From the IMG/VR virus record IMGVR_UViG_3300001199_000001, positions 5,404 to 69,403 of that record: DNA of 64,000 bases; one strand, written 5' to 3'. The notes beneath the pieces are model-generated. The model was given only the letters and a program-made list of their open reading frames with translations, made no database searches and was not told the DNA's origin. Made by a program: the position numbers and the translations under genes. Positions within the stretch are counted from its first letter, which is position 1. Every line of letters starts with the position of its first letter. Shown piece after piece: positions 5,124 to 34,423 of this stretch. Source of the DNA: a virus (lineage: Duplodnaviria > Heunggongvirae > Uroviricota > Caudoviricetes).

Positions 5124-5422
5124 TGCCCTATTCCCTCTACCGCACGCGTGACGGCGCCGGGGACAGCGGCGGCATGAGCATGGCTCTCATTCCGAACAAG
5201 AGTGCTGCCTCTTCCGATGACCCCGATAACCTGAAAATCGACTACGAGCACAACGCCCGTCCGCGCGTGGGCGTCGCCATGCGTGTCGGCAGCATCGCCG
5301 GGCGTACTTTCGCCAGTCAGGACTGGTGGCAGACGACGCTGATAACCGAGATCATCAGCGATACGCCTGAAGAAGTGCGGTTCAAGACCGGTAACTCTGA
5401 ATATGTCTGGAAGGTGTTGTGA
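5123..5422 (+). CDS. hypothetical protein (N-terminus MPYSLYR, paralogous start)
   Basis: AGGAAAGG RBS, TAATG coupling. Confidence 0.55.
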   Translation: MPYSLYRTRDGAGDSGGMSMALIPNKSAASSDDPDNLKIDYEHNARPRVGVAMRVGSIAGRTFASQDWWQTTLITEIISDTPEEVRFKTGNSEYVWKVL

Positions 5423-7866: not shown

Positions 7867-8352
7867 ATGCTGATCCTCTACACCCTGGTCCGGACCGACA
7901 TGCCCTCCATGGGTTACGGCAAGGGCGCGGCCCAAGCCCAGCACGCCGCAACCGCCTTCTCTGAATTCGAAATGCTGCGCCCGCTGGAAGCTGATGGCGA
8001 GATCGACGCCGACGTAATGGAATGGCGCAAGTCCACCAACCAAGGCTTCGGCACCAAGCTGACCCTCGATTGCTCCGACAAAGAGACGATGATCAAGGTC
8101 GTCGCCGCCGCACGCAAGCTCGGCTTCCCGGCGCGTGTGGTCACCGACCCGACCTACCCCTACCTCGTATCCGACGAAATCGTCCCGCTGATCGATAAGG
8201 CCGTCCACACCGACGATCCGAAATCCATCGGCGGCGGGCAGTCGATCTGCTTCCGTGAAGAGAAGACCTGCGCCTACGTCTTCGGTCTGAAGGACGATGT
8301 CAGCATCCTGCTGTCGCGGTTCAAACTACTGCCGAATGAGCCTGTTGCATGA
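7867..8352 (+). CDS. PTH2-family peptidyl-tRNA hydrolase-like protein
   Basis: LVRTDMPSMGYGKGAAQAQHAA matches PTH2 VVRxDLxMxxGKxAAQxxHAA. Confidence 0.6.
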   Translation: MLILYTLVRTDMPSMGYGKGAAQAQHAATAFSEFEMLRPLEADGEIDADVMEWRKSTNQGFGTKLTLDCSDKETMIKVVAAARKLGFPARVVTDPTYPYLVSDEIVPLIDKAVHTDDPKSIGGGQSICFREEKTCAYVFGLKDDVSILLSRFKLLPNEPVA

Positions 8353-17677: not shown

Positions 17678-18034
17678 CTAAATTGTCAAACTAGCACGGG
17701 CTTGCGCAGCGATAGCCCTAAAGGCTAGGGGGTCTGCCGCCAGATCAGCCATGATCTTGCGGTCAATTGCGACGCCCGCCTTTTCCAGGCCATGCACCAG
17801 CGTGGAATAGGTCAGACCCTCCAGTCGCGCAGCCGCGTTTATCCGTTGAATCCACAGGGCGCGGAAACTGCGCTTCTTGTTGCGGCGGTCACGATAAGCA
17901 TATTGCCCGGCCTTATCGACCGCAGCCTTGGCGGTACGGATTGTGCTCTTGCGCCGCCCTGAGAAGCCCTTGGCCTGCTCCAGAACGTTCTTGTGACGGG
18001 CGTGAGACGTGACGCCCCGTTTGACACGAGCCAT
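17678..18034 (-). CDS. rplT: 50S ribosomal protein L20 (bL20)
   Basis: [30 protein letters not shown]...; AAAGGA RBS. Confidence 0.85.
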
Positions 18035-18058
18035 ATCAAATTCCTTTAGATCGAGGGC

Positions 18059-18256
18059 TTAAGCGTAAGGCATGTAGGTTTTGATCTTCGCCGTGTCGGC
18101 GTCGCTCATCACCTTCGTGCCTCGGTTCTGACGGATGTATTTGCCGTTATGGCTAATCAAGCGGTGGCGCTTACCGGCGACACCTGCTTTGATCTTGCCC
18201 GCAGCCGTGATCTTGAAGCGCTTTTTGGCGCCTGACTTAGTCTTCAGTTTCGGCAT
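18059..18256 (-). CDS. rpmI: 50S ribosomal protein L35 (bL35)
   Basis: [23 protein letters not shown]...; AGAGGA RBS. Confidence 0.85.
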
Positions 18257-20149: not shown

Positions 20150-20533
20150 TTATCCCGATGTCAACACATTATCACGTCCCCGCATCAACCGCATGAGCAC
20201 CGCGCGCAGGGCTGATTGCTCGTAAGGCTTCTGAAGGAAGGGCAGGGTCTGATCCGGGACATTCTCCTTGTTATAACCGGTTGACAGCACAAAGGGGATT
20301 CCACGTCCTTGGAGTGCAGTAGCTACCGGGCAGCTATACACTCCGTTCAGGTTGAGGTCGAGAACCGCCATGTCTATCGACTCACTCTCGATGATCGCGA
20401 GAGCCTGCTCGACGCGTGCTGCGGGACCTATGACCTTGCAACCAAGGTCGGCTAACATGTCTTCCAGCACCCAGGAAACCATGAGTTCGTCCTCGACTAC
20501 GAGGACGCGGCGACCCAACAGCGGGCTAGTCAT
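20150..20533 (-). CDS. single-domain response regulator (CheY-like receiver, LovR-like)
   Basis: RVLVVEDELMV...VIGPA...IDMAVLDLNL...PFVLSTGY receiver motifs. Confidence 0.8.
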   Translation of the reverse strand: MTSPLLGRRVLVVEDELMVSWVLEDMLADLGCKVIGPAARVEQALAIIESESIDMAVLDLNLNGVYSCPVATALQGRGIPFVLSTGYNKENVPDQTLPFLQKPYEQSALRAVLMRLMRGRDNVLTSG

Positions 20534-21602
20534 TGGGGCTACGTCCATGACCCTTCGGAAGGGGCATAACGACTTCACACGAAACGCCGGATGGATCGTA
20601 ATCCAATCGGACTTCGCCGTTCAACTCTTGGGCAAGGCCGCGCTCGATAAGGCGAGAACCGAAGCCTTTGCGGGTGGGCTGCACGAGGCGCGGTCCGCCG
20701 CTTTCCTTCCACAGTAGTCGCATCCATTCGCCATCGGCTCGACATTCAACGCCCCAGGACATAGTAACCCGCCCGTCGTCTACCGAGAGTGCGCCATATT
20801 TTGCCGAGTTGGTGGCTAGCTCATGGAAAACCATGGCCAGAGACAAAGCCGCCTTAGGCCGCAAGCGGATATCGGCCTTGGCCTCTAAAGTGAAGCGTTC
20901 CTTTCGCTGATCGTGTAAGCCAAACGGTTCTAGGATAAGGTCGACCACGTTACGCAGCACCACACGGCCCCAACTCGCGCTGCCAAGCAGGCTATGGGTT
21001 TTCGACAACGCGAGGATGCGACCTTCAAACAGTGCAAGAACTTTGCCATCTACGATGCCCCGTAAAGTCTGCCTAGCTATCGCCAGCACGGTTGCGAGCG
21101 TGTTCTGGGTGCGATGGTCTAGTTCATTCAGAAGAAAGCGCAGACGATCTTGCTCCTTCTTGTGGCGCGTAGTGTCCACAAAGGAGGCGAAATGTTGAAC
21201 GACCTCCCCCACTTCGTTCTTGACAGGACTAATGAACACGGTGGCCCACAATACGCTGCCGTCCTTGCGACAATAGCGTATCTCCGTGTCGTGGCCTTCG
21301 CCGTCGTCACGCTCAAAATCGACTTTGATAGCCTCCAACATATCTGGTGCGCCCCCCGGCGCCATCAAGGAGTTAAAGGCCTGCCCAAGTACTTCGCCTC
21401 GACTGTATCCAGTGAGAGCCAAAAAGCTGTCATTAGCGAAAATGAGCGGGTTTCCCGCTGCCTTGGCGTCCGTGAACACCATAGCCATTCGAGTCTGCTC
21501 TGCGGCCACGACAAACGGTCCAAGCTCATCCTTGAACTCTTGAACAACGGCTTCTGCTTTGGCCTGCGCGTTGGCGGGCGTCTTGTGTTGTTCTTCATCC
21601 AT
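20526..21602 (-). CDS. LOV-type PAS domain / HWE (HisKA_2) histidine kinase, LovK-like, lacking the photoactive cysteine
   Basis: GNPLIFANDSFLALTGYSRGEVLGQAFNSLMAP (LOV core with GRNCRFLQG replaced), ...YCRKDGS..W; ELDHRTQNTLATVLAIARQT HWE H-box; C-terminal ATPase. Confidence 0.75.
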   Translation of the reverse strand: MDEEQHKTPANAQAKAEAVVQEFKDELGPFVVAAEQTRMAMVFTDAKAAGNPLIFANDSFLALTGYSRGEVLGQAFNSLMAPGGAPDMLEAIKVDFERDDGEGHDTEIRYCRKDGSVLWATVFISPVKNEVGEVVQHFASFVDTTRHKKEQDRLRFLLNELDHRTQNTLATVLAIARQTLRGIVDGKVLALFEGRILALSKTHSLLGSASWGRVVLRNVVDLILEPFGLHDQRKERFTLEAKADIRLRPKAALSLAMVFHELATNSAKYGALSVDDGRVTMSWGVECRADGEWMRLLWKESGGPRLVQPTRKGFGSRLIERGLAQELNGEVRLDYDPSGVSCEVVMPLPKGHGRSPND

Positions 21603-23060: not shown

Positions 23061-23324
23061 CTAAGCATCGCTACTCACCGGGTCCTTCGCCAGCGCCAAC
23101 GCCTCTTGCAGCGTCTCGACGATCTCTTGAAGTTGTCCTCGCGAGAGCCACATCCAAGCTTTCTCATCCTTGCCTACAGCGAGGTAAACTGGACAGCTTC
23201 TAACCGCGCTGCCCCAGTCAGTCTCCTTCACCTTGACGCGAATAGGGTAGTAGCGCCCAACGGATTTATCCATCAGGATGGTCAGCGGTTTATCGTCATC
23301 GTTTCCTAGATTGCTACCACTCAC
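23061..23324 (-). CDS. hypothetical protein
   Basis: 87 aa ORF. Confidence 0.45.
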   Translation of the reverse strand: MSGSNLGNDDDKPLTILMDKSVGRYYPIRVKVKETDWGSAVRSCPVYLAVGKDEKAWMWLSRGQLQEIVETLQEALALAKDPVSSDA

Positions 23325-24670
23325 GCCGCCACCTCTTTCAGCAGCCCGCCTGTCTTACCCGCCAGATCGAAGTTATTCTCGATGAACTTGATCACCCTGA
23401 GCGCAGGCGTATCCCGCTTGAATACGATGTTCGGTCCGTGGTTATCCAGCATTACAGCTTTAACCCCCGGACGAACCTCAACGAGGTTTTGCGATGTGTT
23501 GGCTCCGCACTGATGCGAGCCACATTCGTTTTGCCACTGCGGCGCGACCTTGACCGGCTCGTGGTCTTCCCTGAACGGTAGATGGGCATGGACGATGCAG
23601 TCGTAGCCAGGATGCTCGCGGAACACCATTCGTTGGCTCTGGCCGCCGACTGATGGCTTGGCGCCGAACGCCACCACCTTATCGTCGCCTTCGTACTCGA
23701 CGCGCACAAGGCCGATTTCCGCTAGCTTGTTGAAGTCCTGTTTGCGTTTGGAAGTGAGGATCGTCTTGTCGTCGATCCGCACAGCAAAATGCCCGACCGT
23801 CGCGCCTCGGAAAGGCTTATAGGCGCCGCGCTCGATGAGGTAGTTGACGACTTCACGTAAATTGTCCGGGATCGCGGGATCATCCCATGCGACCGAGTCG
23901 CCGTGCTGGACTGTGGATCGCGTGAAGGTATTGGTTGATCTCGCCATCACCATCTTGACCAGACCCTTAAGCACCTCATCACGGTCCGTCGTTTCATGGT
24001 AGCGCGCCTCTTCCGGCGTCACGATCATGTTGTTTCGCGTCACCGTATCGTTGGCTAGGACGAGGTTCAGGCTGTCTCGCTTGAGCATATTCAGAGCGAT
24101 GGCGTACTGCTCGTCCGAAGTCGCCCCGGTCGTCGTCTTGAAACCGACCACGAAGATGTCCTTGCGGGTCTTGCGGATTTTACCGATCAGCTTGGTGGCT
24201 GGCGTGAGCACCATATCTTGCTGACCGGCTGAGGTCTTAAGACGTGGTTCATGCGAGCCTGAGGGCGTCGTGACGAAATCAGCATGCCACGTCGAACCAA
24301 GCTGCCCGTCTTCGAGGATCGATCCGTCGTAGTCGCACAGCGCCGCGTTCAGAACGATGACGCGGGTCTCGGGATCAGCGATCAGTTCGTCCAGCAGCGC
24401 GCTGACATCGTCGTTGGTGACGAGCTTGCTGAAATAGGGTTCAGCCATCTTAGTGAGATGAAGGTGCACCGTCTCCTTCATATCTTCAACAGCAACACAG
24501 GCTTCATAAAGGGACCTTATCTTGCCCCCGTTTGTAGCGAGGTCACGAACTGCCGCACCAAACAGTTCGGACAGTCTTCGCGCCGTCTTCCCGAACGCCG
24601 GAGCCGCAAGTGCGAGGTGATTGCGCACGTGGGAGAAAGTCCCGCCGCCGATGATGTGGATTTTCTTCAT
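23321..24670 (-). CDS. two-domain enzyme: N-terminal CoaB/DFP-like (phosphopantothenate-cysteine ligase fold) plus C-terminal class II aldolase/adducin-like domain
   Basis: KKIHIIGGGTFSHVRN...VLNAALCDY...IFVVGFKTTTG...LVLAND (DFP-like); GHFAVRIDD.TILTSKR...GAKPSVGGQS...HPGYDCIVHAHL (class II aldolase). Confidence 0.6.
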   Translation of the reverse strand: MKKIHIIGGGTFSHVRNHLALAAPAFGKTARRLSELFGAAVRDLATNGGKIRSLYEACVAVEDMKETVHLHLTKMAEPYFSKLVTNDDVSALLDELIADPETRVIVLNAALCDYDGSILEDGQLGSTWHADFVTTPSGSHEPRLKTSAGQQDMVLTPATKLIGKIRKTRKDIFVVGFKTTTGATSDEQYAIALNMLKRDSLNLVLANDTVTRNNMIVTPEEARYHETTDRDEVLKGLVKMVMARSTNTFTRSTVQHGDSVAWDDPAIPDNLREVVNYLIERGAYKPFRGATVGHFAVRIDDKTILTSKRKQDFNKLAEIGLVRVEYEGDDKVVAFGAKPSVGGQSQRMVFREHPGYDCIVHAHLPFREDHEPVKVAPQWQNECGSHQCGANTSQNLVEVRPGVKAVMLDNHGPNIVFKRDTPALRVIKFIENNFDLAGKTGGLLKEVAA

Positions 24671-27108: not shown

Positions 27109-27440
27109 CAGCGCATGCCTTGCGGCAGGTACTGCGCCATGAATTCGGTCTCCAGCGCCTTGCTGGGGAAGCTGAAAGTAGGCATCCGACTGATCGGGTC
27201 GACGTAATATTTCACCGTCGGATGCTGCTGCAACCACTCACGCACGCCCAGCAGCAAGACAGGCGGCACCCGACCGGCATGAGCAGGCTCGGTCAACCGC
27301 CAGTTCTTCCACATCGCGGTCGCTTCAAGTTGAAGATAGAAAATGCCCTCATGATTATATCGCCGCATGTCGGGTCTCTTCGGCCAGCGCGTCAAAAACA
27401 CAAAGGCCCGCCCCGAAGGGCGGGCCTCGATTAAGTTCAA
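27108..27440 (-). CDS. hypothetical protein
   Basis: 110 aa ORF; start possibly at 27365. Confidence 0.45.
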   Translation of the reverse strand: MNLIEARPSGRAFVFLTRWPKRPDMRRYNHEGIFYLQLEATAMWKNWRLTEPAHAGRVPPVLLLGVREWLQQHPTVKYYVDPISRMPTFSFPSKALETEFMAQYLPQGMR

Positions 27441-27450
27441 CCTTACTGTC

Positions 27451-28518
27451 TTACCTGACAGCAGTCAACACATTTGGGTTGGGCGCGGTGCGTCTCTGTG
27501 CGTTCGTGTAAGTGAACGGCGCTGTGACTTTTTGCGGATCGCGCGTGACGGGATAGCCCGTAATTTCGGTCGGCCATTGGGCAACCTTATATACCCGCAT
27601 CGAGCGGCGTGTACGACCCGCGACGAAGTCGTTCCAAGCCGTACTAATCAACCCGAACCAAGTGTCCACGTTGAGTGACGAACCGCGACGCAGATTGAGC
27701 GTAACATTGCGCAGCGCTAGGATCGGACTGCCCTTTTCGAGTTCCGCCCCCGACGAAAGCTTGGCAAGAAATTCCGACCACTTGTCGGCATACTCGCCGG
27801 ATGCTGTCGCCATCCAGCCGACCGCGCTGAGCGCCGACATCGAGACTGGCGGTCTGGCGGTATCGATTTTGGAGACGATCTGCTGGATTTCGGGGTGTTG
27901 GCGTACGAAATCGAGCATTTCGTTCTTACTGATCGTATTGTTCCGTGTAGGCAGCAACTGGTTCCACGTGATGATCAGGCGGACCGCAGCGGCGACCTTG
28001 GTCGCTTGGACGATGCCAGCGCCGCTGAGCGTGTCGGAGGCGCTGCGCTTGGCGCCTTGGTCCAGGGTGGAGAAAGTGTCTTCTTCGAGACCGCGAACGA
28101 CCATCATGCGAACCGGGGTCTTGGCGAGGAGGACGGCGGTGAGGCGGTGTTGACCGTTCAGGAGGCGACCGTTGCTAGCAAATTGAATGGGCTCGCCATT
28201 CATCTTCCACATGCCCATGCTCATTTGCCGGGCGAGAGATTCGACATGTTTGCGTCGAATAGGGCGGTTGCCCCAATTGGTGGTCGACAGATACTGATCG
28301 GCGACCTCCGGAGTGATAATTTCGTCCGACCACGAAAGGTGGGATGCGACGTGAACTGATTTGGACTTCGCAGCGGCCATGCCGTTACCTCCTGAGTTGA
28401 TGGTTTCTAACTCATAGTCGCCTTCGTTTCCCGTTGTCAACTCATTAGTGACAGCCTCGATGAACTGAGATTGGGGAGGCTTGGTCCGCCTCGAAAAGAT
28501 CAAATCCATTAGACTCAT
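27451..28518 (-). CDS. ParB-like nuclease domain (ParBc/DUF262-like) protein
   Basis: NGRLLNGQHRLTAV motif resembles DGQ(Q/H)R of ParB/DUF262. Confidence 0.5.
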   Translation of the reverse strand: MSLMDLIFSRRTKPPQSQFIEAVTNELTTGNEGDYELETINSGGNGMAAAKSKSVHVASHLSWSDEIITPEVADQYLSTTNWGNRPIRRKHVESLARQMSMGMWKMNGEPIQFASNGRLLNGQHRLTAVLLAKTPVRMMVVRGLEEDTFSTLDQGAKRSASDTLSGAGIVQATKVAAAVRLIITWNQLLPTRNNTISKNEMLDFVRQHPEIQQIVSKIDTARPPVSMSALSAVGWMATASGEYADKWSEFLAKLSSGAELEKGSPILALRNVTLNLRRGSSLNVDTWFGLISTAWNDFVAGRTRRSMRVYKVAQWPTEITGYPVTRDPQKVTAPFTYTNAQRRTAPNPNVLTAVR

Positions 28519-29630
28519 ACAACCACCCCTCCGTTGGCTGGGTTTTCCCGCACGACGCCGGTCCGTTCGTTGGGCGGGAAACAGAGAGAATAATGCAGAC
28601 CGGTGAAACGATATTCGAGGCGGGCGATGCCGTTGACCTCATTGGGTAGGCCCCTGGTCAAAAGACGCGTTCCGAAGGATGTTTTTTTAGGCCGTTCGAC
28701 ATACGGTCCGCCGCTCTCGTCCCAGCCCAGGCAAATCTCATTTTCACTGACGTGGACGCTGAGATTGACTGCGCCGTTGTATTCCGCGCTCCACGCCCCG
28801 TGCTTGGCGGCGTTAGTGGCCAATTCATGTAAGGCCATGCCAATCGACACCGCGTAATTCGGGTGAAGTTCGATATCCTTGCCGACCACCGTATAAACCT
28901 TGCCGTAAGGTGCGAGCAGGCGGTCGACCAACTCCCGGAAAAACACATGCGACCAGTGATGCTCGACTAGCAGATTATGGGTTTGCGAGAGCGCCATGAG
29001 ACGCTTCTCGAACGTCATCGCGAACTGCTCCTTCGACTCCGCCGCGCGCAAGGTCTGCTGGGCGATGGACTGCACCGACGCGAGTGTGTTCTTGACGCGG
29101 TGGTTCAGTTCGTCGATCAGCAGTTGCTGCCTACGATCATGCTCCTTCAGCGCAATCATCTCGTCCGATTTCTGCTGTAGCGCTAGGTAGGCGGCTTCCC
29201 GGTCACGCAACGCTTCGTCCTTCGCTCGAATCTGGTTTTCGAGCATTGAGGGAGAGGGTATCGCAAGCAGTTGCGGCGTCAAGGGCATCAACATTAATGC
29301 CGTAATCACTGACACTGAGGCGGTGACAGCCTTGAGCAAGGCCTCCACTCCGTAGTGTGGGTTCCACAGCGTCCAGATGGAAAAGAAGTGGGTCGTGCCG
29401 CAGAGCAGGATGAACGACACGAACAGCCAGCCCATCCACCCAAAGCTCAAACCCCTCCGCTTCAATAAGAAATAACCGATGGCGAACGGAATCGAATAAT
29501 ACGCCAGCCCGATAAGCACGTCGGAAGCGACATGGACAATGAGGATGTCAGGGCGCCATAATAAGCAGAGCCCGTGGGGATTTAGAAACTCGGAATCGAA
29601 GAAATATCGAATCCGTTCAATGATATTCAT
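28515..29630 (-). CDS. membrane-anchored HWE (HisKA_2) sensor histidine kinase
   Basis: N-terminal multi-TM domain; ELNHRVKNTLASVQSIAQQT H-box; C-terminal ATPase. Confidence 0.75.
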   Translation of the reverse strand: MNIIERIRYFFDSEFLNPHGLCLLWRPDILIVHVASDVLIGLAYYSIPFAIGYFLLKRRGLSFGWMGWLFVSFILLCGTTHFFSIWTLWNPHYGVEALLKAVTASVSVITALMLMPLTPQLLAIPSPSMLENQIRAKDEALRDREAAYLALQQKSDEMIALKEHDRRQQLLIDELNHRVKNTLASVQSIAQQTLRAAESKEQFAMTFEKRLMALSQTHNLLVEHHWSHVFFRELVDRLLAPYGKVYTVVGKDIELHPNYAVSIGMALHELATNAAKHGAWSAEYNGAVNLSVHVSENEICLGWDESGGPYVERPKKTSFGTRLLTRGLPNEVNGIARLEYRFTGLHYSLCFPPNERTGVVRENPANGGVVV

Positions 29631-29707
29631 GCAGCCGTCACATTAGCTAACCTTGCGGCCTAGCATACGGCGAAACCGCATATAAATCCACTGACAAAGC
29701 TAAAAAG

Positions 29708-29742
29708 AAAAGGGACCCGTTTCACGGGTCCCTTTCCAGTTT
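29708..29742 (-). terminator. rho-independent terminator (bidirectional hairpin)
   Basis: GGGACCCG-tttca-CGGGTCCC stem; T-run on minus strand after stem. Confidence 0.6.
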
Positions 29743-29762: not shown

Positions 29763-30281
29763 TTAGGCTTCTTCGGCGTCCGGGGCGGGCGTGACGAACG
29801 GAGCTTCGTCAGGTTGCGGCTCAACCGGGGCCGGTTCTTCGACCGGAGGAGCGGGCTCAGGATCGACCGGAGCAGGCTCTTCAACCGGAGGAGCGGGCTC
29901 AGGGTCGACTGGCGCAGGCTCTTCAACCGGCGGCAGGGGCTCAGGATCAACCGGAGCCGGTTCTGCCGGGGTGTTGGCCGAGATGGCGGCGGCGAGGGCT
30001 GCTTGCGCGCCGTCGAGTTCACCAGCAAGGGCTTCCAGCGCAGCCGGGTCGTCCTTGAGAGCGCGAATTTGATCGGCGAGACCAGCGATCATAACAACGG
30101 CGCTAGCCATCACTTCTTTGGTTTCGGCGACTTCGAGAGTCAGTTTGTCAAGTGCAGCAGTCATAGCTGTGAGTTTCCCGTCATTGGATTGTAGGAGAGC
30201 AATGATCAGGGAGAGCTTTTCAACCGCCGAGGTAAGTAATTGTCCGGACAGGTTTACATTAAAGTCTATAGAAATGTTCAC
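29763..30281 (-). CDS. coiled-coil protein with C-terminal proline-rich 14-aa repeats (GTG start)
   Basis: VEEPAPVDPEPAPP x3.5. Confidence 0.55.
   Translation of the reverse strand: MNISIDFNVNLSGQLLTSAVEKLSLIIALLQSNDGKLTAMTAALDKLTLEVAETKEVMASAVVMIAGLADQIRALKDDPAALEALAGELDGAQAALAAAISANTPAEPAPVDPEPLPPVEEPAPVDPEPAPPVEEPAPVDPEPAPPVEEPAPVEPQPDEAPFVTPAPDAEEA
29820..29965. repeat. 42-bp tandem repeat (about 3.4 copies) encoding Pro-rich repeats
   Basis: ttcaaccggaggagcgggctcagg(g/a)tcgac(c/t)gg(a/c)gcaggctc units. Confidence 0.7.
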
Positions 30282-31211: not shown

Positions 31212-32683
31212 TTATGCGTTCGCCCCGTTTCCGTTCGGCTTGCGCTTGGCCGGGACGACGGTCTCATTCGGGTGGAGCGTACCCACCGCCTTAGTGACGA
31301 TGGCCTGCCCCTCAGGTGTCTGTGCAAGGCCGGTTAGCATGGAGCCGATAGCCTGACCGCCCTTCGACGAGAACAGATCAGTGATCTTGCCGATGCCGGT
31401 CTGCACGTCGCCGCCGTTGACGATTACCTTCACGTCCGCCGCCTTGATGGCTTCGGCTTGCGCCACCCCGACGACTTGGTTGGCCTTCACCTGCTCGACA
31501 CTGACCAGATAGGTTTGATAGCCGGTGTTGCCGCCGATCTCACGGGCCAATTCCATCTGTGGCGCCACTTCAGCCAGTCCCTTGGCTTTCACGGCTTCAG
31601 CTTCGGCGAGGCCTCGCGCCTGAATGCCTTGAGCTTCCTTGATGGATTCTTCGAGGTTGCCTTCGGCGATCAAAATGGTCTGGTTTTTCTCGCCTTCGGC
31701 TTCGATTCGACGGCGTTCACGAACCGCTTCGGCGTCCACAACGGCGACATTCTTGTCCTGCTCGGCCTTAACCTCAGCCACCGCCTTGTCTTGCTGCGCC
31801 TTGATTTCAGCTACCTGCCGGTTGATCTCGGCGGCCCGTGTCATCTCGACCTGCTTGACCGCGTAATCTTTCTCGGCGGTGGTGCGGGATTCTTCGAGAA
31901 CCTGTTGCTCAGACCGCTGCTTCGCGATGCCGACGGCCTGCTCTTGCTGCGCGGTACGCTCGCCGACCTGTTGTGCGGCTTCCTGTCCAGCCAGATCGAT
32001 CTGACGGCGAGCTTCGATTTCACGCTCTTCGGCTTCGCGATGGTTTTCCGCAACAGCGACGCGGCTTTCCTTCTCGATGCGGGATTTCTCTTTGGCCATG
32101 ATGTTCTCAATGACCTTCGAGCCGTTTGAGTCACGGATGTCCATGAACTCGATGGTCTTGACCGTCTGAACGCCCCATTCCTTCAACTGTCCGTCGACTT
32201 CGGAAGTGAAACGCTCACCGAGCGACGAGCGGTCATGCATGATCGTCTCAAGCTGAGACTGTCCAAGCACGGTCCGGACGGCACCTTGCAGCACGGCGTG
32301 AAGCTGTTCAGTCAGTTCGGCGAAGTTGGCGACGCGGTGCGCGGCTACGTCCGAATCAGCGATCCGGAAGAAGGCCATGACATCGACGCGAAACGGCAGG
32401 CGTCCCTGGTCATAAGCTTCGTAATCCTTCAAGCCGACGTTGAAGACGCTCTCAGGAAGCTCGACCTGCGTGACGCCGAAGAACGGAACGAAACCGGGGA
32501 TTTCATAATAGACGTTCCCGGCTGTCCGGCCCTTGCCGTAGGAAGTCGTTGCTCGGCGTGATTGAACGATGTGCACCATATTGGTTGGTACGACCCGGCG
32601 CAGCACCATCATGATGATGGTTACGAGGACAACGAGGCCAAGCGCCACGCCTCCCCCGATCATTGCAATAATACTACCCATGA
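31212..32683 (-). CDS. SPFH/band-7 (flotillin-like, YqiK-type) protein with long coiled coil
   Basis: N-terminal TM, SPFH core, EA-rich coiled coil; GGAG RBS before ATG 32683. Confidence 0.7.
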
Positions 32684-32697
32684 CTCTGATGCTCCGG

Positions 32698-33252
32698 TTA
32701 TTTTCTGAGGTTTTTGGTGTCGACCTTGACCAAGGCGTCAAGGTGCTTATCGACAGAGGCGACGGCCTCATCACGAAGCTGCTCTTTCATCGCGCCGATG
32801 ATGTTGACGGCGTTCTGCTTGACGAGGTCGATAAAGGCCTCGCTGACGAACTTGCCGACCATCCATTCGGCGCGCGTCTTAGCGCCTTGTTTGTCGTAGT
32901 AGCCGCTGCTGGAAGAGAGTTCCTTGCCGCTCTTGTCGACAAGCTTAGACCAGAAGTCCTTCGATTTTTCGTTCAAGGTATCGCGGATGCTGATCGGCTG
33001 ACCGGCAGCTTGGCCATAAATATCGACAGGCTGGATCGGCTGCGTGAGCATAGACTCAAGCCGGTCATTGAGGAGGTCGTCGATCTTCGATGTGATCTTC
33101 GCGCCTATCGCCTCATCGACGCGTTTATCAATCAAACGACCAACGCGGTCGCCAACGTAGCCGGACGATGCGGCATCATCAGCTAGCTTCCGAGCGGCGC
33201 GCTCAAGGATTTGCTCGCGGATTTCTTCTTGGGAAAGGCCAAGGTCGATCAT
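32698..33252 (-). CDS. hypothetical protein
   Basis: 184 aa ORF. Confidence 0.55.
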   Translation of the reverse strand: MIDLGLSQEEIREQILERAARKLADDAASSGYVGDRVGRLIDKRVDEAIGAKITSKIDDLLNDRLESMLTQPIQPVDIYGQAAGQPISIRDTLNEKSKDFWSKLVDKSGKELSSSSGYYDKQGAKTRAEWMVGKFVSEAFIDLVKQNAVNIIGAMKEQLRDEAVASVDKHLDALVKVDTKNLRK

Positions 33253-34021: not shown

Positions 34022-34423
34022 TTAGGAGCGAAACGTCCCCAGGCCCATGCCCTTGGCGATCTCGCTACGGCGTTTCGCATAGTTAGGGGCGGTCATGGGA
34101 TAATCGGACGGGAGACCCCACTTACGGCGATAAGCTTCCGGCGACATGTCGTAACGCGCGCGGAGGTGACGCTTCAGCATTGTCAGCCGCTTGCCGTCCT
34201 CCAGGCAGACGATATAGTCAGGTTGAATCGACCGCCTGATCGAGACGGCGGGCTCTTTCTGTTCAACAGGCGCTTCATCAGGGGCGTCGAGGGTGGCCAT
34301 AGTGCGATGCACCGAGCGGATCAGTTCCGGTATAGTTTCCACGGGGACCTGATTATTCGCCACGTATGCCGCGACGATATCGGCGCTCATGTGGATAATG
34401 TCTTCACTGCTGTCCGTAGTCAT
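34022..34423 (-). CDS. Ros/MucR-family transcriptional regulator with degenerate zinc finger
   Basis: IVCLEDGKRLTMLKRHLRARYDMSPEAYRRKWGLPSDYPMTAPNYAKRRSEIAKGMGLG vs Ros CLECG..FK.LKRHL..H..TPEEYR.KW.LP.DYPMVAP.YA..RS.LAK.MGLG. Confidence 0.8.
   Translation of the reverse strand: MTTDSSEDIIHMSADIVAAYVANNQVPVETIPELIRSVHRTMATLDAPDEAPVEQKEPAVSIRRSIQPDYIVCLEDGKRLTMLKRHLRARYDMSPEAYRRKWGLPSDYPMTAPNYAKRRSEIAKGMGLGTFRS

Follow-up and report, generated by a model that had tools for sequence, protein, structure and literature searches.

Does a bacteriophage of Caulobacter-like bacteria encode its own receptor for a gaseous signal? This question is raised by a histidine kinase gene on the minus strand of a 64,000-nucleotide stretch of viral DNA, positions 5,404 to 69,403 of IMG/VR virus record IMGVR_UViG_3300001199_000001, which is referred to here, at its full length, as the window. 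The gene (28515..29630) is predicted to encode an N-terminal ethylene-binding domain (EBD) of the Pfam family ETR1_N, joined to a catalytic core of the HWE type. That the protein has this identity and that its gene belongs to a phage is, as a joint claim, very probable. The best explanation of the locus, which we consider reasonably likely, is a phage-borne orphan kinase gated by ethylene, or by a similar small ligand, that would act on a signalling network of the host or on a receiver encoded by the phage.

Domain architecture of the kinase

The kinase is encoded by an open reading frame (ORF) that starts with ATG, fills 28515..29630 including the stop codon, and is translated into 371 amino acids. 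As an earlier, sequence-only reading of the window had proposed, the ORF contains an HWE-type H-box, the string ELNHRVKNTLASVQSIAQQT, which includes His177; Pfam assigns the protein to HWE_HK (PF07536; E = 9.8e-27, 94 bits against a cut-off of 22.8), and HisKA_2 also exceeds its gathering cut-off (E = 6.6e-9). The same reading described the N-terminal region as about seven hydrophobic segments and called for a check against MHYT and MASE sensor profiles, and here it has to be corrected. Kyte–Doolittle hydropathy gives three hydrophobic segments, all inside aa 20–127 and none past aa 130, and an AlphaFold model places three transmembrane (TM) helices at aa 27–57, 65–89 and 93–122. No MHYT or MASE model matched; the sole Pfam sensor match is ETR1_N (PF25487), which had been missed, and a sensor with seven TM helices or of the MHYT or MASE kind was therefore rejected. 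The ETR1_N match covers profile positions 2–97 of 97 (E = 5.5e-36, 123.2 bits against a cut-off of 27), and a search with the domain alone gives 126.2 bits (E = 6e-37).

All parts of the protein are given here with their positions on the minus strand. Ahead of TM1, aa 1–26 (29553..29630) form a predicted periplasmic segment with the motif NPHGxCLLWRP, whose H19 and C22 lie in near-invariant alignment columns. The EBD (aa 27–124; 29259..29552), delimited by Pfam, hydropathy and the AlphaFold helices, comprises the three TM helices. It is followed in the AlphaFold model by a signalling (coiled-coil) helix that leads from TM3 to the dimerisation and histidine phosphotransfer (DHp) domain (aa 125–165; 29136..29258) and that holds, at about aa 149–155 (29166–29186), a seven-residue insertion found to be phage-specific in an alignment of 29 homologs. 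The DHp domain (aa 166–225; 28956..29135), located by the HWE_HK match at aa 174–244 and by alignment to structure 5epv, carries the predicted phospho-acceptor H177 (codon 29100–29102). The catalytic ATP-binding (CA) domain (aa 226–352; 28575..28955), placed by homology to 5epv and 6ph4, contains the N-box HELATNAAKHGA, the W303-D-E305 GGP motif and an FGTRLL motif. In the AlphaFold model, which was built from the 29-sequence alignment and has a mean predicted local distance difference test (pLDDT) score of 85, one unbroken helix spans aa 127–196 and is followed by the DHp and CA domains.

The region of aa 162–352 is homologous to the HWE kinase LOV-HK of Brucella (5epv/6ph4; phmmer, E = 1.5e-27), and the modelled fold agrees with the same structures (Foldseek E = 6.6e-16; root-mean-square deviation of 3.0–3.1 Å over ~200 residues; target TM-score of 0.76–0.78). 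H177 lies within ELNHRVKN, aligns with the H-box of Brucella LOV-HK and is invariant in the 29-sequence alignment, as are W303, E305, H268, N273, K276, F319, G320 and R322. The invariant columns include the N-box histidine, H268 in HELATNAAKHG, and W303-D-E305, and the catalytic motifs (N-box, W-x-E and G2) are intact. A conserved N-box histidine and a W-x-E in the G1 region are reported (Karniol & Vierstra 2004) to define the HWE family. Sequence and model thus predict a full ETR1_N domain joined via a single continuous helix to an HWE-type DHp/ATP-binding core, and each property of the ETR1_N domain and of the HWE kinase family that can be checked by sequence or fold is found in this protein.

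The predicted ligand site

BLASTP aligns the kinase with the N-terminus of ETR1 from Arabidopsis (AtETR1) at 33% identity over 153 residues (E = 1e-20). Eight ligand-site residues are identical between AtETR1 and the phage EBD, namely D25 (D37 in the kinase), Y32 (Y44), I35 (I47), P36 (P48), I62 (I74), C65 (C77; codon 29400–29402, minus strand), H69 (H81; codon 29388–29390) and K91 (K100), and none of the eight positions varies in the alignment of 29 sequences. Tyr32, Ile35, Pro36 and Ile62 reportedly (Wang et al. 2006) complete the seven AtETR1 residues required for ethylene binding. In ETR1, Cys65 and His69 of TM2 are the copper ligands, and Asp25 positions His69 and bonds with Lys91 (PMC11971883, PMC11819568). 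The numbering of the AtETR1 query agrees with the residues named in PMC11971883 (Asp25, Phe33, Ser34, Cys65, His69, Lys91, His107 and Pro110). No sequence relative of the EBD was found in the PDB at E ≤ 0.01.

Ethylene binding and signalling via a receiver are on record for two EBD kinases of bacteria, AzoEtr1 and SynEtr1 (PMC11819568). The kinase activity of ETR1 is inhibited by ethylene, and for SynEtr1 there is indirect evidence of the same effect (PMC11819568). With the residue pattern described above, ethylene as the ligand of the phage kinase is a proposal that we regard as evenly balanced.

The segment preceding TM1 has a feature of its own. The motif NPHGxCLLWRP (aa 16–27; 29550–29585, minus strand) is family-specific; its His19 and Cys22, both near-invariant, are predicted to face the periplasm and may supply a disulfide for dimerisation, as Cys4/Cys6 do in ETR1, or else an additional metal site.

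Homologs and evolutionary constraint

Among the best 120 matches in a search of 5.8 billion proteins, all but one are cellular proteins of ~355–364 aa with the same order of ETR1_N and HWE domains; those with names come from Phenylobacterium/Caulobacteraceae, and the cellular kinases share 47–56% identity with the phage copy. The single exception, P0002, is also the closest homolog (63% identity) and is encoded on a divergent phage-like contig, L002. In species-representative genomes, full-length matches were found in Phenylobacterium, a Caulobacter metagenome-assembled genome (MAG) and a Caulobacterales MAG (48–52%), and a more distant one in Microvirga (38%). In the four cellular contexts that were inspected, the gene is an orphan amid unrelated housekeeping genes, with no adjacent receiver. 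The 50,697 deposited phage records contain no full-length homolog of the kinase, only weak partial matches to the kinase core, and scans of IMG/VR with the kinase protein and with the 29-sequence alignment returned seven viral contigs with HWE cores, none of which bears an EBD. Three of the IMG/VR hits (L004, L006 and L010, on contigs of 499,572 and 607,744 bp labelled viral) are HWE cores with 35–41% identity to aa ~135–345; two of them sit on the same 608-kb contig, and none has an EBD.

In a neighbour-joining tree computed without an outgroup, the two phage kinases form a clade of their own in 50 of 50 bootstraps. They are ~51% identical to the cellular proteins, compared with a mean of 66% among the cellular proteins themselves, sit on a longer branch and have 15 derived substitutions in common. 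The window kinase retains 96 of the 107 columns that are conserved at ≥ 98% in cellular orthologs. Its best-conserved domain is DHp, with 80% identity between the two phage copies and 63–68% to the cellular consensus. The seven-residue insertion in the signalling helix is unique to the window protein and P0002 within the 29-sequence alignment, and it is reflected in the distance between the copper-ligand cysteine and the phospho-acceptor histidine, which measures 93 residues in 114 of 119 proteins in which the two motifs were located; each of the phage proteins has a spacing of 100, and two cellular proteins have one of 86. Because the spacings are 86, 93 and 100, the indels amount to whole heptads, which a coiled-coil signalling helix would tolerate without a change of register. 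Linker studies in engineered sensor kinases tie linker spacing to signal polarity.

Such a pattern speaks for an acquisition long ago, with purifying selection since then on the ligand site, the transmission helix and the catalytic core. As judged from the sequence comparisons, the phage kinase descends from, or shares its origin with, the orphan kinase family of Phenylobacterium/Caulobacterales.

Phage origin of the gene

The window encodes a portal protein (phrog_145, E = 7e-109) that shares 58–59% identity with portals from the phiCbK-like jumbo phages of Caulobacter, and a PHROG search identified tail-related proteins near its 3′ end. On both sides the kinase gene is flanked by long same-strand runs of small ORFs without a Pfam match (ORFans), extending over more than 20 kb in each direction, and the genes on either side include no cellular housekeeping neighbourhood. 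Gene composition is that of the phage: the kinase gene has a GC content of 0.555 and a GC content at third codon positions (GC3) of 0.70, compared with a GC3 of 0.69 for the portal gene and a GC content of 0.565 for the window, whereas the Phenylobacterium ortholog has values of 0.70 (GC) and 0.95 (GC3). One record of the identical kinase protein lies on a 278,859-bp contig; a 70.9-kb Logan contig, from a second, independent data source, has it too. Contig L002 shares at least eight collinear genes with the window (32–73% identity) and carries P0002 at the syntenic place, so the kinase is kept at the same position in two divergent phages. No tRNA genes that could serve as host or phage markers were found in the window, and positions 20–40 kb of the window showed no nucleotide similarity to deposited phages.

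The window is thus DNA of a jumbo phage related to the phiCbK-like phages, and the kinase gene is a phage gene. The sequence-only reading had placed two HWE kinases in a phage segment and had named host-derived flanking DNA as the finding that would overturn this; the portal, the phage protein families, the composition, the syntenic copy and the phage-typical neighbouring gene uphold its assignment.

Other genes are common to the two phages. A PTH2-type peptidyl-tRNA hydrolase (window 7867–8352, plus strand; L002 17953–18429) is 62% identical between them, and an Rv2179c-like exonuclease and a DUF3850 protein are likewise found in both.

A second HWE kinase, a phage receiver and the host network

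A second HWE kinase is encoded at 20526..21602 (minus strand; Pfam PAS_9 and HWE_HK) and overlaps the gene of a single-domain receiver (20150..20533, minus strand). Its DHp and CA domains have 43% identity to those of the ETR1_N kinase, and the starts of the two genes lie 8.0 kb apart, the distance at which the sequence-only reading had placed a LOV-HWE kinase. The HWE part of that description stands; the LOV part needs qualification. At the LOV site GRNCRFLQG the protein has GYSRGEVLGQAFNSLMAPGG, in which the photoactive cysteine and nearby flavin-contact residues are missing, and the score for the NCBIfam model BluLightHisKinLov, 224 bits, stays below the cut-off of 450. The second kinase is probably a LOV-derived PAS kinase and no blue-light receptor, and without the photoactive cysteine, joint sensing of blue light and ethylene by the phage becomes a weaker proposal.

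The receiver has 127 amino acids, with D58 and the motif PFVLSTGY, and matches Pfam Response_reg (E = 2.8e-9) as well as NCBIfam models of the PRK13435 type and for the PhyR receiver. Its motif is a variant of the FATGUY motif PFxFATG(G/Y) of MrrA/SdrG-type regulators (motif from PMC5964349). The observation in the sequence-only reading that no receiver adjoins the ETR1_N kinase is correct for this gene, but a receiver directly follows the other HWE kinase; the two together resemble a LovK/LovR pair and provide the phage with a candidate phospho-acceptor.

In Caulobacter and Sphingomonas, HWE/HisKA2 kinases phosphorylate MrrA/SdrG (FATGUY) regulators and PhyR promiscuously, and the HWE/MrrA/PhyR network governs the general stress response and holdfast formation (PMC5964349). 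LovK/LovR serves as a sink for phosphate in Caulobacter, where PhyK and LovK lack autokinase activity in vitro (PMC5964349). The ETR1_N kinase is of the HWE/HisKA_2 class that PMC5964349 gives for the sensor kinases of the PhyR–NepR–sigmaEcfG system. By analogy with these systems, interference with a host HWE/PhyR-type network, as suggested in the sequence-only reading, is a reasonable proposal; that the host network is the actual target of the kinase is tentative, and we place it somewhat below an even chance.

Proposed mechanism and alternative explanations

According to the explanation that we favour, a kinase dimer would insert into the host inner membrane during infection. The N-terminus would be periplasmic and the kinase cytoplasmic, because a KRR loop follows TM1 (positive-inside rule) and three TM helices are predicted. 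The EBD, presumably loaded with Cu(I), would bind ethylene or a similar small π-ligand at the copper site, which would shift TM3 and the signalling helix. Ligand binding might then lower autophosphorylation of H177, as reported for ETR1 and proposed for SynEtr1, and so change the flow of phosphate to a single-domain receiver, with the kinase either feeding phosphate in or draining it out. The acceptor could be a host hub of the MrrA/PhyR/LovR type, which HWE kinases use promiscuously, or the FATGUY-like receiver of the phage 8 kb away. As a result, either host physiology (stress, adhesion or envelope) or gene expression of the phage would be retuned to the environment. The proposal is doubtful in its most specific form, in which a lytic jumbo phage senses ethylene with a receptor kinase of its own and uses this during infection to reprogram adhesion, motility or stress signalling of the host, or its own expression of late genes.

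Several observations weigh against the favoured explanation. Pfam HATPase_c does not match the kinase and HATPase_c_2 stays sub-threshold (E = 0.013); since the HATPase models remain below threshold, the ATP-binding domain (Bergerat fold) is established by homology and fold. The ATPase domain of the sequence-only reading is sustained on that footing, by 5epv and 6ph4, and the profile test that it had set out for HisKA_2 and HATPase came out positive for the former and below threshold for the latter. The 11 changed ultra-conserved columns of the window kinase cluster where TM1 begins and where TM3 ends, and the phage EBD has drifted, with 58% identity to the cellular consensus compared with 85% among cellular proteins. 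On the output side, no receiver gene adjoins the ETR1_N kinase in the phage or in the four cellular contexts. Contig L002 has no PAS-HWE/receiver pair in the 18 kb examined, and the phage receiver is therefore not a conserved partner of this kinase. Linkage to phyR, nepR or ecfG was found neither among the gene calls of the window nor in the four cellular neighbourhoods, and the sigma-EcfG motif GGAAC-N16/17-CGTT is missing within 200 nt upstream of the 11 phage and cellular genes tested. A consensus sigma-70 promoter was not found on the coding strand in the 76-nt leader between the upstream terminator and the kinase ATG. The alternatives are considered next in the order in which they hold up.

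The strongest alternative, which we nevertheless consider unlikely, keeps the same protein and changes the ligand: the Cu(I)–Cys/His site would report copper, redox state or another small unsaturated or gaseous molecule, and the kinase would serve as a sensor of periplasmic or membrane stress. It gains from the fact that ethylene binding is established only for EBDs fused to PAS/GAF-HisKA kinases, from the additional conserved NPHGxC motif that the Caulobacterales EBD-HWE family has ahead of TM1, and from the changes in the phage copies at several otherwise invariant EBD columns. Against this, each AtETR1 residue known or reported to be needed for binding is conserved, including the D25–H69 and D25–K91 partners, and the Pfam ETR1_N match spans the entire domain.

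Quite improbable, in our estimate, is a ligand-independent hijacker that would shut off a host signalling branch whatever the ligand, either as a phosphatase or phosphate sink or by poisoning a host ortholog through heterodimers. The high conservation of the DHp domain, both between the phages and relative to the cellular consensus, would suit such a role, and the Caulobacter LovK/LovR phosphate sink, with PhyK and LovK devoid of autokinase activity in vitro, offers a precedent. However, the conservation of the ligand-site residues and of an in-register (+7) signalling helix in both phage copies would be unexpected if sensing were dispensable, and the catalytic N-box, W-x-E and G2 motifs have remained intact.

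The weakest alternative is that the gene is cellular and no phage cargo, through host DNA beside a prophage or a chimeric assembly. It can appeal to the chromosomal kinases of Phenylobacterium/Caulobacterales as the nearest full-length relatives besides P0002, to the count of 0 of 50,697 deposited phage genomes with a full-length homolog and to IMG/VR contigs devoid of an EBD, but it is very unlikely and already largely refuted. Against it stand the portal, the runs of small phage-type genes that extend for over 20 kb to either side and include no housekeeping neighbourhood, the phage-like and host-unlike composition, the overlap of the kinase stop codon with a gene of a phage family, the 63% identical copy at the syntenic spot of a related phage contig, the same protein in two independent data sources, and the place of the kinase on a long branch apart from the cellular copies, to any of which it is just ~51% identical.

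Genomic neighbourhood of the kinase gene

The kinase gene is the first of two genes between intrinsic terminators, all on the minus strand. At the 5′ border, a terminator with a 14-bp stem and a T-run (29707..29737) ends the upstream gene for a 172-aa protein. The kinase stop codon overlaps the ATG of a 355-aa gene (27451..28518; ATGA overlap) that belongs to phrog_5931 (PHROG E = 4.7e-61), and a second terminator with an 11-bp stem (9 GC pairs) and a T-run (27403..27428) closes the cassette at its 3′ end. From these sequence features, the kinase and its downstream neighbour are predicted to form a terminator-bounded two-gene cassette that is co-transcribed. The cassette has the properties of phage accessory (“moron”-type) genes, being non-structural, phage-like in composition and flanked by terminators.

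Homologs of the 355-aa gene occur in 91 deposited phage records, the best being in Brevundimonas phage Bajun, a jumbo phage of the Dolichocephalovirinae (44%). The sequence-only reading had called this neighbour ParB/DUF262-like; the ParB part agrees with the depositor annotation “ParB-like nuclease domain protein” of several homologs, and Pfam gives no match even at E ≤ 1. Synteny with phage Bajun around this gene was rejected, as that gene alone is common to both. The pairing of the kinase with the ParB-like gene is not conserved, because the related phage L002 has no ParB-like gene beside its kinase.

Several other genes of the window, all on the minus strand, deserve mention. The 172-aa protein encoded upstream of the kinase (29763–30281) ends in a Pro/Glu-rich tandem repeat, PAPVDPEPAPPVEE, in about three copies, followed by the strong terminator. 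Some 1.6 kb upstream of the kinase, a large flotillin-like SPFH/Band_7 protein is encoded at 31212–32774 (Pfam E = 4.9e-14, with a weak NCBIfam FloT match). A Band_7/NfeD gene lies upstream of one Phenylobacterium ortholog, and co-capture of the Band_7 gene with the kinase was considered and rejected, as the three other cellular contexts differ completely; the proximity of the two genes in the phage looks coincidental. A transcriptional regulator of the Ros/MucR family (34022–34423; Pfam E = 6.4e-49) has homologs among the regulators of cell cycle and virulence in alphaproteobacteria. A 449-aa protein (23321–24670; phrog_35624) combines regions resembling phosphopantothenate-cysteine ligase (DFP/CoaB) and class II aldolase. 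Pfam also detects phage genes for Ribosomal_L35p (~18059–18256) and Ribosomal_L20 (~17678–18034), together at 17678–18256, in the same order as bacterial rpmI-rplT and with small ORFs without a Pfam match on either side.

Comparison with known sensor kinases

AzoEtr1 of Azospirillum brasilense (PMC11819568) resembles the phage kinase in its N-terminal EBD with three TM helices and the Asp/Cys/His/Lys residues, its C-terminal histidine kinase, its alphaproteobacterial lineage and the expected output via a single-domain receiver. It differs in having 525 aa, a PAS domain between EBD and kinase, and a receiver gene that overlaps its stop codon (PMC11819568), whereas the phage EBD is joined directly by one helix to the core, no receiver adjoins the gene, and the protein is encoded by a virus. 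The core of the phage kinase is of the HWE type; the comparison covers AzoEtr1 without its kinase subtype. SynEtr1 (slr1212, Synechocystis) and the plant ETR1/ERS receptors share with it the Pfam ETR1_N domain and the copper-ligand Cys and His in TM2, but their kinase domains are of the HisKA type (or degenerate) and are accompanied by GAF or cyanobacteriochrome modules, in some also by a fused receiver, and signalling by the plant receptors is largely independent of kinase activity. Relative to AzoEtr1 and SynEtr1, the phage kinase is thus an orphan with an HWE core and no intervening PAS/GAF module; by analogy, it presumably works as they do.

The closest counterparts are the orphan ETR1_N-HWE kinases of Phenylobacterium/Caulobacterales (for example P0071 and P0013), which agree in domain order, length, catalytic and ligand-site residues and orphan status; unlike the phage copies, they have a GC3 of ~0.95, lie in housekeeping neighbourhoods and lack the +7 insertion. 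The LovK–LovR/MrrA–PhyK–PhyR network of Caulobacter (PMC5964349) is similar in its HWE/HisKA_2 family and host clade, and a FATGUY-like single-domain receiver is found in the same phage; its kinases, however, are soluble PAS/LOV/GAF proteins, whereas the phage kinase is a membrane EBD protein without a genomic link to PhyR, NepR or sigma-EcfG.

Viral sensor kinases of other kinds are also known. The agr kinase of Clostridium phage phiCDHM1 is a host-type sensor kinase in a virus, but of a different kinase type. Ectocarpus phaeoviruses have sensor kinases as well, EBD-like ones included, and brown-algal “ethylene-binding-domain-like” kinases are tied to inserted phaeovirus DNA, but these are cases of eukaryotic giant viruses with other kinase types. 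For bacteriophages, no ethylene-receptor homolog or EBD kinase was found in the open-access papers searched, the 50,697 phage genomes or IMG/VR.

Biological significance

Ethylene is a gas released by plants, by microbes and through photochemistry, and the ethylene receptors are textbook plant proteins. Working bacterial receptors are recent additions, with SynEtr1 and AzoEtr1 (2025), and a conserved, seemingly intact phage copy would extend hormone or gas perception to the viruses of bacteria. The protein family described here is recognisable; its direct EBD-HWE fusion is uncharacterised, and its bacteriophage setting is, as far as we found, unreported. If the proposal is true, environmental gas sensing is encoded by a bacteriophage, with the first viral member of the ethylene-receptor family that has a predicted working binding site, and the few two-component proteins known to be encoded by phages would be joined by one with a sensory input. 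Beyond the phage, an uncharacterised orphan EBD-HWE family of the Caulobacterales comes into view, whose kinases may connect ethylene with the promiscuous HWE/MrrA/PhyR phospho-network. That network controls the response to stress and the attachment to surfaces, traits that decide infection by the flagellum- and pilus-dependent phages of the phiCbK type. With such a kinase, a giant phage of Caulobacter-like bacteria may couple its infection to a gaseous signal from the environment.

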